A stretch of 64,000 nt of DNA from an uncultured Eubacteriales bacterium (GTDB lineage Bacteria > Bacillota > Clostridia > TANB77 > CAG-508), in NCBI GenBank assembly GCA_902787685.1, contig CADAHH010000004.1:27677-91676 (forward strand), given 5' to 3'. The translations under genes and the position numbers were made by a program. Position 1 is the first letter of the stretch. Each line of letters opens with the position of its first letter. The notes below the pieces were generated by a model, which saw nothing but the letters and a program-made list of their open reading frames with translations, had not been told where the DNA came from and searched no databases. This document shows positions 1 through 8,700 of this stretch, piece after piece.

Positions 1-51
1 TCATATTGTTCTCTAAGTGCTTCCATTGATTACTGTTCCTCCTTTCTTAAA

Positions 52-357
52 TTAATTTATTTTAGCTCCACATTTTTTACAAACTCTAAATTTCTTATCA
101 TTTTCAATTACATAACCAATTCTAGTTGCTTTTCCACACTTTGGGCACACAATGTTAACAATTGATGAATGAATTGGAAATTCTGAAGCCATTATTCCAC
201 CTTCTCTATTAGGTGCTGCTTTAACATGTTTTTTTCTAATATTAATACCTTTTACTATAACTTTTTCAGTTTTAGGTATAACTTCTAGAACTTCACCAGT
301 TTTACCTTTATCATTTCCAGATAAAACCATTACGTTATCACCTTTTTTGATTTTCAT
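52..357 (-). CDS. rplX: 50S ribosomal protein L24 (uL24); C-terminal tail carries CPKC...CKKC, a zinc-ribbon-like motif
   Basis: KGDxVxVxxGxDKGKxGxV KOW motif; sits after rplN in spc-operon order; ATG of rplE lies at position 4 running off the window. Confidence 0.85.
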   Translation of the reverse strand: MKIKKGDNVMVLSGNDKGKTGEVLEVIPKTEKVIVKGINIRKKHVKAAPNREGGIMASEFPIHSSIVNIVCPKCGKATRIGYVIENDKKFRVCKKCGAKIN

Positions 358-637
358 TTAAGGTTTTCCTCCTTTTTTACTATTTTATATTTACTGTTTC
401 TTAGATAAATACTCTCTTAAATTTGAAGTTATCAAAAATATAATTTGCTGTACTTTAATTGTATATACATTTCTAGTTTTCAAAATTTTGAAAACTAAAA
501 AGCTACGGTTAATATTTTGTAAAATTCAGCTAGCCTAAGGGCTATCTTAATTTAACAAAATTTAAACCTATGCATCTTTAATCTGTAAAATACAAATGTC
601 CACTGATTTATAATGCAATACTCTATTTATCATCATG

Positions 638-760
638 TTTCCCGTTTTCAAAAGAATGGTTATATTGCAAGGCAAGATTTTACGAAAAAACCGGAGCGTA
701 CATATTGTACGTGAGGATTTTTGAGTGAAATCTTAACACAGCAAGATGGCCATTATTTTG
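638..760. repeat. About 125-nt structured repeat element, copy 1, in the unusually long rplN-rplX spacer
   Basis: About 80% identical to 3096-3222; internal hairpin CGTACA-TAT-TGTACG with compensatory changes versus copy 2. Confidence 0.6.
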
Positions 761-764
761 AAAA

Positions 765-1133
765 CTATAGTACTTCTGGTGCTAATGAAAGAATCTTAAG
801 GTATTCTCCATCTCTTAATTCTCTAGCAACAGGTCCAAATATACGTGTTCCTCTAGGTGTTTTATCTTCTCTTATAATTACTGCTGCATTATCATCAAAT
901 CTAACATAAGAACCATCTGCTCTTCTAATAGGGTTTGTAGTTCTTACAATAACTGCTTTTACGACATCACCTTTTTTTACAACTCCACCTGGTGTTGCTT
1001 CTTTAACAGATGCAACTATTATATCTCCAATACCAGCAGTTTTTCTATATGATCCACCTAAACATCTTATACACATTAGCTTTTTAGCTCCAGTGTTATC
1101 GGCTACGTTTAGGATACTTTGCTGTTGTATCAT
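765..1133 (-). CDS. rplN: 50S ribosomal protein L14 (uL14)
   Basis: MIQQQS...[12 protein letters not shown]; true start at the internal Met with GGAGA RBS; the listed ORF is 5'-extended. Confidence 0.9.
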
Positions 1134-1153
1134 ATTAATATCTCCTTCCCAAT

Positions 1154-1420
1154 CTATTTTATGTCTGCTTTTTCGATAATCTCTACTACTCTCCATCTCT
1201 TATCTTTAGAAAGAGGTCTAGTTTCCATAACTTTAACTTTATCTCCAATATTACAGCTATTATTTTCATCATGTGCTTTTAATTTATATGTTCTTTTAAC
1301 TATTTTTCCATAAATATTATGTCTTACTTTTCTTTCAACAGCAACAACTACTGTTTTATCCATTTTATTTGATGTAACAATACCTATCATTGTTTTACGA
1401 AGATTTCTAGTTTGTTCCAT
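1154..1420 (-). CDS. rpsQ: 30S ribosomal protein S17 (uS17)
   Basis: KMDKTVVV...AHDENN motif; operon position. Confidence 0.85.
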
Positions 1421-1628
1421 TGTTTACCCCTTTCTTCTCAGCAATCTTTCTTTCTGTTAGAATAGTATTAATTCTAGCAATATCTTTTTTAACTTCTCTA
1501 ATTTTCATAGGGTTATCTAAAGAATGTGATGCTAAGCTAAATTTTAATTTGAATAATTCTGTTTTTAATTCACCTAATTCTTTCTCCAATTCAGGTGAAG
1601 ACATTTCTTTTAATTTATTTAATTTCAT
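1407..1628 (-). CDS. rpmC: 50S ribosomal protein L29 (uL29)
   Basis: ELxxLKxELFxLKF motif; operon position; overlaps the rpsQ start by 14 nt. Confidence 0.8.
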
Positions 1629-2056
1629 TAATTTTCACCCTCCTCGATTGTTCTTTTAACAAATTTTGTTCTAACAGGTAATTTATTTGCAGCTAAACGT
1701 AATGCTTCTCTAGCAGTTTCTTCAGAAACCCCAGCAATCTCAAACATTATTCTATCTGGTTTTACAGCTGCTACCCAAAATTCTGTATTACCTTTACCTT
1801 TACCCATACGAGTTCCAGCAGGTTTTCTTGTAATAGGTTTGTCTGGGAATATTTTAATCCAAACTTTACCATCTCTTTTCATATAACGAGTCATTGCAAC
1901 TCTGGCAGCTTCAATTTGGTTTCCTGTAATTAATCCTGCATCAGTAGCTTGTAAACCAAATTCTCCATAAGAAACTGTATTTCCTCTTGTTGCTCTACCT
2001 CTATTTCTACCTTTTTGTACTTTTCTATGTTTTGTTCTTTTTGGCATTAATGGCAT
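1628..2056 (-). CDS. rplP: 50S ribosomal protein L16 (uL16)
   Basis: [11 protein letters not shown]...GKGKG motif. Confidence 0.9.
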
Positions 2057-2712
2057 TATTGTTCTCCTCCTTCCATTTTTTTAGTAGGAAGAACTTCTCC
2101 TTTATATATCCAAACTTTTACACCGATTTTTCCATATGTAGTATTTGCTTCTGCAAATCCATAATCAATATCAGCTCTTAAAGTTTGTAATGGAATATTT
2201 CCTTCTTTATAGAATTCAGTTCTTGCCATATCTGCTCCACCTAATCTACCAGATACTGCAGTTTTAATTCCAGCAGCTCCTGCTTTTAGAGTTTTTTGCA
2301 TACATTGTTTCATGGCACGTCTGAATGAAATTCTTCTTTCCAATTGTGAAGCAATATCTTCTGCAACAAGTGTTGCATCTAAACTTGGATTTTTTACTTC
2401 AACAATATTTAAATTAACATCTTTACCAATTAATTTTTTAATATCTAATCTTAATGCTTCTGCTCCAGCTCCACCTTTTCCAATTAAAATTCCAGGTTTT
2501 GCAGTATAAACATTAACTTTTACTGATTTTGCAGTTCTTTCTATTTCAATATTTGCAATTCCAGCTTCATATACTTTTTTCTTTAAAAATTTACGTATTT
2601 TTTGATCTTCTATTAAATAATCTGCAAAATTTTTGTCATCTGCATACCATTTAGATTTCCAATCTTTAATTACGCCTAATCTTGCACCTAGTGGGTGTAC
2701 TTTTTGTCCCAT
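2056..2712 (-). CDS. rpsC: 30S ribosomal protein S3 (uS3)
   Basis: MGQKVHPLG...KH domain; operon position. Confidence 0.9.
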
Positions 2713-2719
2713 ATTGTCC

Positions 2720-3073
2720 TTATGCCTCCTTTTCCTCTAATTTTATTGTTATGTGACTTGTTCTTTTTCTGATTCTAACTGCTGAACCTTTTGCAGCAGG
2801 TCTAATTCTTTTTAGAGTTGGACCTTGATTTGCATAAATCTCAGAAATATATAATTTATCATGTTTCATATCATGATTATTTTCAGCATTTGCAATTGCT
2901 GATTTTAAAAGCTTTTCAATAATTTCTGATGATGCTTTTGGTGTAAACTTAACTATTGCTAAAGCTTCATCTACATTTTTTCCTCTAATTAAATCTGCAA
3001 CAATTTTAACTTTTCTAGATGAAATTCTTGCATATTTTAGAGTTGCTTGAGCTGTTTTTACTTCTGCTTCCAT
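2720..3073 (-). CDS. rplV: 50S ribosomal protein L22 (uL22)
   Basis: [10 protein letters not shown]...RISSRKVK; start taken at the internal Met; the listed ORF is 5'-extended into the repeat element. Confidence 0.85.
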
Positions 3074-3095
3074 TTTTTCTATCCTTTCATAATAA

Positions 3096-3222
3096 TATTT
3101 ATTTTCCGTTCGCGGAAGAATGGTTATATTGCTAGGCAAAATTATATGAAAAAACCGGAGTGTGCTTTGTGCACATGAGGATTTTTGAATAAAATTTTAA
3201 CAACGCAAGATGACCATTATTG
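3096..3222. repeat. About 125-nt structured repeat element, copy 2, filling the rpsS-rplV spacer
   Basis: Homologous to 638-760; hairpin TGTGC-TTTGT-GCACA covaries with copy 1. Confidence 0.6.
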
Positions 3223-3228
3223 CACGAA

Positions 3229-3537
3229 CTATTTTTTAGTAGTTTTTTCTCCTGCATGACCTTTGAATGTTCTCGTAGGAGCAAACTCTCCTAATTTATG
3301 ACCAATCATTTCTTCTGAAATGTATACAGGAACATGTTTTCTTCCATCATGAACTGCGATTGTATGACCAACAAATTCTGGATAAATAGTTGAAGCTCTT
3401 GACCATGTCTTAATAACTTCTTTTTTGTTTTCAGCATTCATAGCTTGAATTCTTTTCATAAGCTTTTTATCCACATATGGTGCTTTTGGCTCTTTTCTCT
3501 TATTAAGATCTTTTTGTGCATTTTCCTTTTTTGCCAT
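3229..3537 (-). CDS. rpsS: 30S ribosomal protein S19 (uS19) with a short N-terminal extension
   Basis: [13 protein letters not shown]...[17 protein letters not shown]. Confidence 0.9.
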
Positions 3538-3562
3538 TTTTATTCTCCTTTCTCAAATTTTA

Positions 3563-4387
3563 TTATTTTCTTCTCTTAACTATAAATTTATTTGATTGTT
3601 TTTTCTTATTTCTTGTCTTGTATCCAAGAGCTGGTTTACCCCAAGGTGTTAATGGTCCTGCGTGACCAATTGGAGCTCTACCTTCACCACCACCATGTGG
3701 GTGATCTACTGGATTCATAACAGATCCACGTACTTCTGGTCTCCATCCCATATTTCTTTTTCTTCCTGCTTTACCAATTTTTACGTTTCCGTGATCTGAA
3801 TTTCCAATTACTCCTATTGTAGCTCTACAATTTGCAAGAACTAATCTCATTTCTCCAGAAGGAAGTCTTACGTGTGCGTATTTTCCTTCTTTTGCCATTA
3901 ATTGTGCACTTTGTCCTGCAGCTTTAACTAATTTTCCACCTTGACCTGGATTTAATTCTATATTGTGGATTAAAGTACCAACTGGTATAGAATTTATTTC
4001 CATACAATTTCCTGGTTTTATATCTGCTGATTTTCCAGATATTACTTTATCACCATCTGTTAATCCTTGTGGTGCTAATATATATGCTTTAACTCCATCT
4101 GAATATTGAATTAAGGCTATATTTGCGCTTCTGTTTGGATCATATTCGATTCCAATTACTTGTGCTTCCATATCGTCTTTTTGACGTTTAAAATCAATTA
4201 TTCTATATTTTTGTCTGTTTCCTCCACCTTGATGACGTACTGTTATTCTACCATAGTTGTTTCTTCCTGCTTTTTCTTTCTTTGTTGTAAGTAAAGATTT
4301 TTCAGGTGTCTTTTTTGTTATTTCTGCAGAATAATCTAATACTGTCATATTTCTTCTTGAAGGTGTGTATGCTTTAAAATGTTTCAT
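3563..4387 (-). CDS. rplB: 50S ribosomal protein L2 (uL2)
   Basis: [16 protein letters not shown]...HPHGGGEG motifs; GGAG RBS. Confidence 0.92.
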
Positions 4388-4424
4388 TATAAATCTTCTC
4401 CTTTTTTACTAATTTGTACGGATA

Positions 4425-4485
4425 TTTTCCTGCTCCGCCTGCAGTTAAAATTTATTATCCTAGTTTTTTCTAGATATTTTTGATG
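4425..4485. repeat. 60-nt direct repeat, copy B, just upstream of rplB
   Basis: Near-identical to 5481-5545 (core CAGTTAAAATTTnTTnTCCTAGTTTTTTCTAGATATTTTT). Confidence 0.7.
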
Positions 4486-4604
4486 CTTTTTACTCACGTG
4501 ATTCTGATAATTTATCTGTTGCTTCAGAAATATTAGAATTTGGATGTTGTATGGTGGTTGCTGTATAGCATGCCAAAGAGTTCTTAAATGTTCTTTTAGC
4601 ATCT

Positions 4605-5426
4605 TCAACAACACCGACGTTTCTTAAAGTATTCAAGAATTGTATTTGAAGCTTTAAGAAATTCTTCTATATCCTGTGCATTTAAATCTCCAGATTCATA
4701 GTAGTTTGTTATTTTTTCTGATACTGTTAATACTTTTCTCTTTATAAGATTAGCTTTATCATACATTTCATCACACCATTTCAATCTGTCTATTATCCAT
4801 GATGCTGCTTCACAATTTCCTTTTCCATCATTAACTACTATATTTTCTATTTGCTTATAAAAACCATTAGAATCAAAATTTGAATTGTCTTTTAATTTTT
4901 TAAGTTTTTCTATATTATTAGCTAATATATCTATAAGTTGATATACAAGCACTTTTAGATAATTATATACCTCGTTAAATGGATCTAGCTCATCTTTATC
5001 ATCTAGATAATCACTTATTGCACTGATCTTCTTCTCAATTGTACCATTTCTAACTTGGCTTTGAGCTTCTTCTGTAAAATTTTTTGTATCCAAGAAAATG
5101 CTCCTTATAATGTTGTCATCATAATCTTTTTCCCAATCATTTGCTTCAATAAATATCTCTCCACCTATTGATAATTCTCTGGTTATTTTATCAACTATAT
5201 TTCTAAGATAGTAATAAAAATTATTATCTTGTGAAATCTCAAGTATTCTAGCAAAATTAAACAATCGTATTAACCATCTTAAATCGTCAACATCCTTTAG
5301 GTGTTCTCTATAGTTCTCTTCTCTATAACCTTTAGAAGCTTTAGAATAATATATAGGACCACCTGGTTTTGAAAAACATTCTATTAAAGTACCCGGAAAA
5401 CTTCTGTAACTTGGACTATCATACAT
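4605..5426 (-). CDS. Hypothetical 273-aa protein inserted in the S10 operon; no recognisable domain
   Basis: Long ORF with AAGGAG RBS; bracketed by the 60-nt direct repeats; in-frame CGG three codons before the stop. Confidence 0.6.
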   Translation of the reverse strand: MYDSPSYRSFPGTLIECFSKPGGPIYYSKASKGYREENYREHLKDVDDLRWLIRLFNFARILEISQDNNFYYYLRNIVDKITRELSIGGEIFIEANDWEKDYDDNIIRSIFLDTKNFTEEAQSQVRNGTIEKKISAISDYLDDKDELDPFNEVYNYLKVLVYQLIDILANNIEKLKKLKDNSNFDSNGFYKQIENIVVNDGKGNCEAASWIIDRLKWCDEMYDKANLIKRKVLTVSEKITNYYESGDLNAQDIEEFLKASNTILEYFKKRRCC

Positions 5427-5480
5427 ATTGAACTACTCCTTTATCTTGACTATCATATTAATTAAACCTACAAAATAAGC

Positions 5481-5545
5481 ATTTTTCCGGCTCTTCCTTC
5501 AGTTAAAATTTGTTTTCCTAGTTTTTTCTAGATATTTTTTATTTT
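5481..5545. repeat. 60-nt direct repeat, copy A, between the two inserted ORFs
   Basis: See 4425-4485. Confidence 0.7.
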
Positions 5546-6021
5546 TATTGTGGTTGTTCTTGAGTATTGTTATCTTTTTTTATATCTGGTGTATTTATTA
5601 TTTGTATAATTTCCTTCAATCCAGTTGATATACTCGTAAGAGATTGATTATTTAAGGATTCAAAATTTGAACTTTTCAAAGTGGTTTTAATACTACTTAA
5701 ACTTCCTTTAATCGAAGCTTCTAAATTTCCTCTATTTATATTGAGTTTTGAAATAAATTGCTCATATGAAGTATCTTGACTTTCTCCCATTGTAATATCA
5801 CCTGAACAACATTCCTGTATTTTACTAATTCTTATTAAAATATCCTTTAAATTTTCAACTGAAAGTTTGTCAAGTTTTCCTTGTAAATCTTGGTTTATTA
5901 TAACTTCTCCTGTATTTGGTTGTTCATAATACACCTCTAATCGAAGTATTGATTCTTTAATTTCGTTTATTATATTATCTTTAATTGTTTCATAAGGTAC
6001 TTGCATTCCATTAAGTCCCAT
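5545..6021 (-). CDS. Hypothetical 158-aa Ser/Asn/Gln-rich protein, translationally coupled to rplW
   Basis: ATG lies 9 nt after the rplW stop with a GAGGA RBS inside the rplW 3' end. Confidence 0.55.
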   Translation of the reverse strand: MGLNGMQVPYETIKDNIINEIKESILRLEVYYEQPNTGEVIINQDLQGKLDKLSVENLKDILIRISKIQECCSGDITMGESQDTSYEQFISKLNINRGNLEASIKGSLSSIKTTLKSSNFESLNNQSLTSISTGLKEIIQIINTPDIKKDNNTQEQPQ

Positions 6022-6030
6022 ATTGTCCTC

Positions 6031-6378
6031 CTACACTCCTGTGAAGTCTTCTATTGAGTCTTTGAATTTCTTAGTTCCTTTTGTTTCCTTTCCACCTTTA
6101 GCTAAGTATGTAGATGCTTTTGGATTGATATCTATTGTAACTATTGCTTTTTTCCAGCTTGATGTCATTCCTTGATGATATCCTACTCTTTTCTTTTTTC
6201 CTTTTACCATCATTGTATTAACATTTAATACTTTTACATTAAAAAGTTTTTCAACAGCATTTGCTATTTCAACTTTTGTTGCTTTTTTGTTAACTTTGAA
6301 TGTGTATTTTCCATCTTGTAAACCATTGTTACTTTTTTCAGTAACTACTGGTGCTATTATAATTTCTTCTGCTACCAT
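6031..6378 (-). CDS. rplW: 50S ribosomal protein L23 (uL23) with an extended C-terminus
   Basis: VVTEKS...KYTFKV motif; operon position. Confidence 0.88.
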   Translation of the reverse strand: MVAEEIIIAPVVTEKSNNGLQDGKYTFKVNKKATKVEIANAVEKLFNVKVLNVNTMMVKGKKKRVGYHQGMTSSWKKAIVTIDINPKASTYLAKGGKETKGTKKFKDSIEDFTGV

Positions 6379-8587: not shown

Positions 8588-8700
8588 AATGTAGATTTCT
8601 CCAGTTGCCCTGTGCTTCGCTTCGGTTTGCTGTTCATTGTTAAGGCTCTGCTTGTTACAATGGCAGTATGCGTTTGAGCTGTTCGGCTTACGCGTGATTT
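8588..8700. repeat. GC-rich about 100-nt dispersed element (family D), copy 1
   Basis: About 85% identical to 14029-14125; core GCTTCGCTTCGGTTTGCTG...TTGTTAAGGCTCTGCTTGTTACAATGGCAGTATGC; partial relative at about 7766-7800. Confidence 0.6.

Follow-up and report, generated by a model that had tools for sequence, protein, structure and literature searches.

Ribosomal protein (r-protein) operons are usually compact. Why, then, does one of them hold two long and similar palindromes in the spacers between its genes? The question is raised by a 64,000-nt stretch of contig CADAHH010000004.1 (assembly GCA_902787685.1), referred to here as the window, from an uncultured low-GC rumen member of the Clostridia whose nearest records are CAMVKF01 and GCA_003518755.1. 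The S10/spc operon lies on the minus strand, with the gene order rplB, rpsS, rplV, rpsC, rplP, rpmC, rpsQ, rplN, rplX. A preliminary description of the window reported a structured element after rplN and again after rpsS, and listed as candidates an autoregulatory r-protein leader, a riboswitch, an attenuator and, last, a structured MITE (miniature inverted-repeat transposable element). It is the last of these that has gained ground, the element being multi-copy, polymorphic and dispersed. The observation is real, and a known kind of element accounts for it. The two copies, A and B, are very probably non-coding, dispersed, palindromic intergenic repeats of a MITE-like type, in the superfamily of ERIC, the enterobacterial repetitive intergenic consensus, also known as the intergenic repeat unit (IRU) or RU-1. 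What is new is the host range, a core found across phyla and the unusual repeat load of an r-protein operon.

Two copies of one palindromic element

Copy A is a 122-nt imperfect palindrome, or rod, in the rplN-rplX spacer (644-765, plus strand), with inverted arms at 644-668/741-765 and 674-702/706-734. Copy B is a rod of the same length and orientation in the rpsS-rplV spacer (3108-3229, plus strand), supported by its fold and by the ERIC-only model R3 described below. The element-sense strand of both is thus the plus strand of the window, antisense to the operon. The copies are 79% identical over 131 ungapped nt and 84% identical over 108 nt, with a mean column identity of 83%, in agreement with the figure of about 80% given at first. 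They share the 22-mer GAATGGTTATATTGCNAGGCAA, which occurs exactly twice in the 64 kb against 0.01 expected occurrences, and they are the only copies of the family in the window. A common flank, TATTTAT...TTYCC, precedes each rod (620-643 for A, 3090-3107 for B, plus strand; pairwise alignment) and is a candidate part of the element. Both copies are small and non-coding and have inverted ends, as MITEs generally do.

Each copy folds as a single rod. On the plus strand copy A reaches -49.7 kcal/mol (z -7.8) and copy B -41.2 kcal/mol (z -5.2). The minus strands, at -36 and -34.9 kcal/mol, are also single rods, and z is -5 to -8 overall. Within the rod is a conserved core, 83 nt in copy A (663-745, plus strand) and at 3127-3209 (plus strand) in copy B. 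These match the full length of R1, a covariance model of an 84-position core built from 35 Clostridia copies, with 94.1 and 96.5 bits respectively. The core of copy A has the order P2 (UUGC/GCAA), loop AAGGC, P3, GA/GA loop, P4 (an A-run/U-run with CC/GG), GGA/GA loop, P5 hairpin and loop UAACAC. The apical hairpin P5, as placed by folding, is GCGTACA TAT TGTACGT with a G.U closing pair in copy A (696-712, plus strand) and GTGTGC TTTGT GCACAT in copy B (3160-3176, plus strand).

The differences between A and B are compensatory in the apical hairpin, the middle helix and the outer stem. The two covarying pairs of the apical hairpin that were described at the outset are genuine (C-G in A for U-A in B, and A-U for G-C), and they have counterparts in the other two stems, the outer one reading GTTTTCAAAA/TTTTGAAAAC vs GTTCGCGGAA/TTGCACGAAC. 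The local TTGC-nAG-GCAA stem that had been proposed with them is wrong. TTGC pairs instead with the distal GCAA 80 nt away, and this helix shows GC to AU covariation in 14 of 35 sequences. A mini-ORF (open reading frame) of the form GTG/ATG AGG ATT TTT GAR stop, encoding MRIFE*, is present in both copies and was considered as a product of the element. A variant core would give MTAF*. The peptide is therefore not conserved, and the conserved feature is the structure.

Distribution in other operons, strains and phyla

If the element controlled r-protein synthesis specifically, it should be confined to r-protein operons. It is not. The apical motif AAAAACCGGAG-[6-8 bp hairpin]-TGAGGATTTTTGA was first scanned for in one genome per species, which gave many chance matches, with true copies among the matches listed. 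In CAMVKF01, another member of the Clostridia with r-proteins 83-95% identical to those of the window, copies are present in the S10/spc and gap-pgk-ispG operons. Other low-GC gut Clostridia have copies after purH, in the fusA-tuf spacer, between two ackA genes and in the mltG-aspS spacer. A metagenome scan with a stricter pattern returned 31 loci, 27 of which proved to hold a copy by a hidden Markov model (HMM) of the family. S10/spc operons account for eight of the 27 (about 30%). The others are housekeeping operons (por, fba-smpB, tkt, gatB, mnmE/mnmG/jag, dnaN, parA-parB, clpP, pheS, pgk-ispH, ackA and rpsG). The S10/spc operon makes up about 1% of such a genome, so there is a marked excess of copies there. 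Copies occupy intercistronic spacers, mostly 0-25 nt from a stop codon.

The repeat is thus dispersed, with S10/spc markedly over-represented. Its spread over many operons and in both orientations means that it is not an r-protein-specific control. In sister strains, known from contigs encoding an identical RpsS protein, searches with an HMM made from copies A and B gave as many as 5-6 copies in one S10/spc operon, again in both orientations, in the S19-L22, L14-L24, S14-S8, S8-L6, L6-L18, S17-L14 and L23-L2 spacers.

The apical motif, accompanied by flanking helices that covary and by the loops (A/U)AGGC and UAAC, recurs across phyla. The core is found in Bacillota (Lachnospiraceae, Eubacterium, Acutalibacter), in Bacteroidota (Bacteroidales, Rikenellaceae, Saprospiraceae), and in Burkholderiales, Methylophilaceae, Salinicola, other Gammaproteobacteria, Deltaproteobacteria and Bdellovibrionota. 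Model R1 matches these cross-phylum copies from end to end, scoring 35-65 bits, and picks up others in which the search pattern is missing, among them two more in an 8-kb Salinicola locus (65.5 and 55.3 bits). The rods are about 120-170 nt long around a conserved core of about 85 nt. Some copies sit between the tRNA genes of a tyr-gly-thr tRNA cluster, which in E. coli precedes tufB. No family copies were found in the phage, plasmid and viral collections searched.

Insertion polymorphism and mobility

Are the copies stable parts of the operon? The intergenic spacers throughout S10/spc vary in length between sister strains. Among contigs with identical RpsS, the rpsS-rplV spacer forms an allelic series of 18, 72, 90, 116, 155, 174, 206 and 224 nt. 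The 18-nt allele (locus L009) is empty, those of 72 and 90 nt have the outer stem alone, and that of 116 nt has lost one arm of the middle helix. The window form is 155 nt, and the alleles of 206 and 224 nt have an extra 50-nt hairpin module beside the apical hairpin. The rplN-rplX spacer ranges from 26 nt (L008) to 407 nt across strains. The suggestion that both spacers are expanded is upheld by these empty alleles, and insertion polymorphism, a property expected of MITEs, is present in the species of the window.

The stop codons next to the rods also differ between alleles. The rplN stop is TAA in the element-free alleles L002, L004, L005 and L008, and TAG in the filled alleles L001 and L007. 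Likewise the rpsS stop is TAA in the empty allele L009 and TAG in every filled or truncated allele. In the window the G of the rplN stop TAG (765-767, minus strand) is the end base of rod A, and the G of the rpsS stop TAG (3229-3231, minus strand) is the end base of rod B, a one-base overlap by the ORFs in each case. The change from TAA to TAG at filled sites fits an element that starts with G and was inserted at the TA of a stop codon.

The part of the operon that holds both copies spans 52-3537 (minus strand; ORFs, and Pfam families of the identical genes in L001). By their ORFs, all on the minus strand, its genes are rplX (52-357), rplN (765-1133), rpsQ (1154-1420), rpmC (1407-1628), rplP (1628-2056), rpsC (2056-2712), rplV (2720-3073) and rpsS (3229-3537).

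Gene ends inside copies are also seen elsewhere. Among enterobacterial plasmids, ptsG and tesA as annotated run a few bases into an ERIC copy (L166 1-47, L168 1-44), and in a Clostridia relative pgk ends within an arm of the element (L061 2065-2087). The repeat therefore sometimes provides the last codons or the stop codon of a gene.

Some relatives have moved more recently. Three contigs of Lachnospiraceae MGBC123049 hold 190-nt copies of 99% identity whose flanks are unrelated. A Saprospiraceae genome (JBLHJZ01) has copies of about 170 nt with 94-97% identity, likewise in unrelated flanks. Near-identical copies at unrelated sites indicate recent mobility in those genomes. In a Eubacterium genome the copies have the termini TAGTACACC...GGTGTACTA. 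TA is present at both ends of the Eubacterium and Lachnospiraceae copies, and also of a solo palindrome at 470-501 in the window. The window copies have TA at one end alone, the left flank being CC and the right flank TA.

Relation to ERIC

Strains have been typed with ERIC sequences for over 30 years. In its central part the element resembles the ERIC centre known from the ERIC-PCR primers. E. coli genomes contain this ERIC 44-mer without a mismatch (100% identity), with a median of nine sites each. An E. coli ERIC copy folds as a 130-nt rod whose apex has the same make-up (GGAG, a 6-bp G.U-closed hairpin and UGA), with GA/GA loops, AAGGC and AACGC loops, and a UUGCA/UGCAA helix.

Is this likeness more than chance? 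Local alignments of ERIC to several family members reach z 4-5, a level attained by 0-1 of 300 shuffles, and they have a single orientation and are collinear from AAGGCG to the apex. A covariance model, R3, was built from 11 ERIC copies alone (E. coli, Citrobacter, Pantoea, Klebsiella, Salmonella, Serratia and Rahnella). Over 287 kb it gave 14 matches with E<10, all of which coincide with family copies over the full length and on the strand that R1 matches, with copy A at 31.8 bits (E 3.5e-5). With filters off, in positions 1-6000 of the window, copy A is the best match (641-772, 31.7 bits, E 7.5e-7) and copy B the second (3104-3237, 19.2 bits, E 0.0013), and everything else has at most 11 bits.

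ERIC is described as a 127-bp imperfect palindrome with inverted termini, intergenic, often at the 3' ends of genes and co-transcribed with its neighbours, with about 20-30 copies in E. coli and about 700 in Photorhabdus (PMC10969869, PMC2229807, PMC3184786, PMC2267715). It has a TA target duplication, with 5'-TA-3' at both termini (PMC2229807, PMC3184786). The present element is like it in several ways. It is a single long imperfect hairpin of about 122-130 nt, and it has the same motif order, a UUGC(A)...(U)GCAA helix, an AAGGC loop, GA/GA loops, a GGAG-[6-bp G.U-closed hairpin]-UGA apex and an AACGC loop. It is intergenic and at gene 3' ends within transcription units, in both orientations, and it has internal deletion and insertion variants. 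There are also differences. P4 is an A-run/U-run in the element and CCCCAG/CUGGGG in ERIC, P3 of the element is a regular 10-bp helix, and its ends read GTT...AAC where those of ERIC read TATAC...GTATA. The host is an uncultured low-GC rumen member of the Clostridia, whereas the distribution of ERIC is given as Enterobacteriaceae and Vibrionaceae (PMC10969869). This makes the present case a range extension and not classical ERIC. A limited search of the literature gave no report of ERIC relatives in Firmicutes or Bacteroidota. From sequence and predicted fold, we conclude that the window elements are distant relatives of classical ERIC within an ERIC-like superfamily.

How might the copies have arrived? 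They would have been inserted by a transposase acting in trans, presumably at TA, as reported for ERIC; the TA-GTT...AAC-TA termini seen in places and the change of TAA to TAG fit such a site. Once inserted they would be read through in the operon mRNA, forming a long hairpin that does not stop transcription, and later they would undergo internal deletion and swap parts with one another. If Yersinia ERIC and neisserial Correia elements are a guide, they may alter the processing or stability of mRNA segments.

Several points weigh against this account. A target-site duplication is not readable for copies A and B. A search of the individual loci examined for an autonomous partner sharing these termini gave none, only MITE-sized terminus pairs. 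Copies in the lineage of the window are merely 80-90% alike, which indicates that they are old and gives no sign of recent movement in this genome. The S10/spc share of about 30% of the lineage's metagenome copies is far above the expectation for random insertion, so that simple selfish spread is insufficient. The family-built models R1 and R2 match E. coli ERIC across the apical 21 nt only, with 10-14 bits. The match is thus clear in one direction alone, and the relationship is distant. Finally, the E-values of R3 are rough, since its calibration was shortened; the exclusive coincidence of its matches with family copies is independent of the calibration.

Covariation and the object of selection

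The preliminary description took the compensatory changes as an argument for selection on RNA structure. The covariation holds in a wider alignment, as had been proposed as a check. In 35 sequences 92.3% of the cells are paired, against 78.2% in column shuffles and 29-54% with the partners slid; both sides have changed in 21 of 27 pairs, and RNAalifold is concordant. In 70 distinct cross-phylum sequences, an alignment fitted to the model and hence biased towards structure, 91.7% are paired against 71.0% in shuffles, and 26 of the 27 pairs have changed on both sides. A variant core has two P4 C-G pairs flipped to G-C and retains the symmetric GA/GA loop.

The second half of the argument, that the selection is on RNA, does not follow. 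The apical closing pair is G.U in 65 of the 70 distinct family members. Elsewhere in the stems, the mismatches on the plus strand of the element number 29 of the G.U type vs 55 of the A.C type. With no strand bias in these mismatches, selection on RNA is unproven despite the strong covariation. Orthologous copies in two species are 80-84% identical, compared with 76% at four-fold degenerate sites of the flanking genes, and long-term constraint above background is not demonstrated by this difference. Selection on the folding of RNA or of single-stranded DNA could have kept the palindrome. Arm-to-arm templated repair, with exchange between copies, could equally have done so.

Two resemblances to known RNA motifs were considered for the core and rejected. 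The apical loop is 3x2 or 2x2 (GGA/GA or GA/GA), whereas a K-turn has a 5x2 layout, and the loop is read as tandem G.A only. A likeness to the sarcin-ricin loop in permuted order (GUAC, GAGGA, CCGGAG) is taken as coincidence.

Alternative explanations

Could the S10/spc copies have been domesticated? Whatever the origin of the element, copies in this operon may be kept as sites of RNase III/Y/J processing, or as stabilisers, that tune the output of neighbouring genes. We consider this rather unlikely as the main explanation, although it is compatible with a MITE-like repeat of the ERIC superfamily. The same spacers are occupied in the same orientation in the window species and in CAMVKF01, the operon is enriched in copies (8 of the 27 HMM-confirmed loci), and the rods adjoin stop codons or Shine-Dalgarno sites. 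In Yersinia, moreover, ERIC changes mRNA stability or level in an orientation-dependent way, via RNase E (PMC2229807). Against this, strains with an identical RpsS have empty, truncated and enlarged alleles, so no copy is indispensable. Both orientations are found, and the orthologous copies show no clear extra constraint over the four-fold sites.

It is improbable that the core is itself a functional RNA (for example a small or protein-binding RNA, or a ribozyme) with the rod as its closing helix. Unpaired AAGGC, two GA/GA loops, UAAC and the closing G.U are kept across phyla while the stems covary, and the plus strand folds more stably than the minus strand both in the window and in E. coli ERIC. 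However, the window copies are antisense to the sole evident transcription, no promoter is evident, and the plus strand has no excess of G.U over A.C. Many copies are internally deleted. In addition, Rfam gave no match up to E = 10 in positions 300-3600 of the window and none up to E = 0.5 in seven sister loci.

An autoregulatory r-protein leader is very hard to sustain, and so is a terminator or attenuator inside the operon. The element does lie within an r-protein operon, and its apical hairpin followed by a T-run is called terminator-like on the plus strand, but that call is antisense to the operon with none on the sense strand. Other strains have copies upstream of rplB that face the sense direction and keep the U5 run intact. 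The element is also found in pur, gap-pgk, ackA, parAB and tRNA operons and in other phyla, and its position, orientation and very presence vary between strains. The same facts, with the lack of an Rfam match, dispose of a riboswitch. An interrupted U-run in the sense copies was also considered. It is true for some spacers and fails for the L23-L2 and S10-L3 copies.

Comparison with other repeats and implications

A MITE-like repeat of the ERIC superfamily can be set beside other small bacterial repeats. The Correia/NEMIS elements of Neisseria and the RUP and BOX elements of Streptococcus pneumoniae are likewise small, non-coding, co-transcribed hairpin repeats whose presence varies by strain. 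They have no sequence relationship to the present element. They also have conserved termini and a proposed parent IS, whereas in the present family conservation is in the centre and the termini vary by site. REPINs, doublets of REP sequences mobilised by RAYT transposases, are similar in being intergenic hairpins of about 100 nt with correlated changes in their arms (PMC3116915). Unlike them, the element lacks both a short GC-rich palindrome of the REP type and a conserved GTAG. The attC site of integrons (5'-RYYYAAC ... GTTRRRY-3') was rejected as a match, since the rods read GTT...AAC on both strands, in the opposite order.

The ERIC reviews consulted name neither a mobilising enzyme nor a function for the conserved centre, and to our knowledge none has been established. 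Relatives in Clostridia, Bacteroidota and beta- and delta-proteobacteria, some of them recently active, would permit a comparative search for a co-occurring transposase or host factor, and would also reveal which parts of the rod are essential. We tentatively propose, as one possibility among others, that ERIC is the enterobacterial branch of a cross-phylum family. Its invariant core of about 85 nt, in which two tandem G.A loops and the loops AAGGC and UAAC accompany a G.U-closed hairpin, might be the module that a conserved partner recognises. Such a partner could be a transposase that works on folded single strands, or a host factor of the RNA-binding or RNase kind. Accumulation in S10/spc might then come from usefulness or from special tolerance. 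An operon with 5-6 polymorphic hairpin repeats and variable uncharacterised genes is in any case an unusual natural test of how much structured insertion is tolerated. For annotation the case carries a warning, as covariation between two copies alone is not indicative of a cis-regulatory RNA.

Other repeats in the operon and the window

The rplN-rplX spacer has an extra 280 nt beyond copy A, which the preliminary description had thought a possible internal promoter. Promoter-like matches in positions 1-5600 of the window number 23, compared with 27.4 in shuffles, and give that idea no support. The 280 nt are a mosaic of two further palindromes, and their length is strain-variable. The first is the TA-flanked solo palindrome (470-501, no strand assigned), a perfect palindrome TTTCTAGTTTTCAAAA/TTTTGAAAACTAAAAA with arms identical to copy A's outer stem. 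L004, which is without copy A, has this palindrome too, and it is probably an internal-deletion remnant or a bare terminus pair. The second is an unrelated 62-nt hairpin (507-568, no strand assigned) with 29-nt arms that are 83% complementary.

Several other repeats were seen in the operon. Between rplW and rplB (window 4387-6100) there are two genes without a Pfam match, of 273 and 158 aa (ORFs 4605-5426 and 5545-6021, minus strand). Sister strains have 0, 1, 2 or 5 different uncharacterised genes at this place. Each of the genes is followed by the same repeat of about 60 nt, ATCTAGAAAAAACTAGGATAATAAATTTTAACTGCAGGCGGAGCAGGAAAATATCCGTACA (window 4425-4491 and 5483-5549), an arrangement that resembles a cassette array. 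A palindromic repeat, GGGGACATATCTT...AAGATGTGTCCCC, is present in the L5-S14 and L22-S3 spacers of some sister strains and truncated in others (L001 10052-10186, L002 6885-6981, L005 6042-6092). In some strains the L2-S19 spacer holds one or two units of about 105 nt, GCTCTTAGGTTTTAAGTTC...GTAAGTGCAAAA, and similar GC-richer units are in the S10-L3 and S14-S8 spacers. The sites of all these units are L009 843-1104, L007 2104-2259, and L004 677-864 and 7823-8275.

Elsewhere in the window, a short hairpin repeat, GGCGATTAAAATCGCCCCTACA, has five copies (10316, 32765, 37894, 37959 and 62826). A repeat of about 250 nt is found at 36045-36292 and 51243-51487, 15.2 kb apart, with 75-90% identity and no Rfam match at gathering score. 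Tandem 34-nt units with GGGTACATTGGGACCGGTTCTTTTTGTC, and an exact 41-nt tandem duplication, are seen at 26759-27132 and 28280-28361. Lastly, an 83-nt GC-richer repeat is present at 8589-8671 and 14019-14101, 5.4 kb apart and 88% identical.

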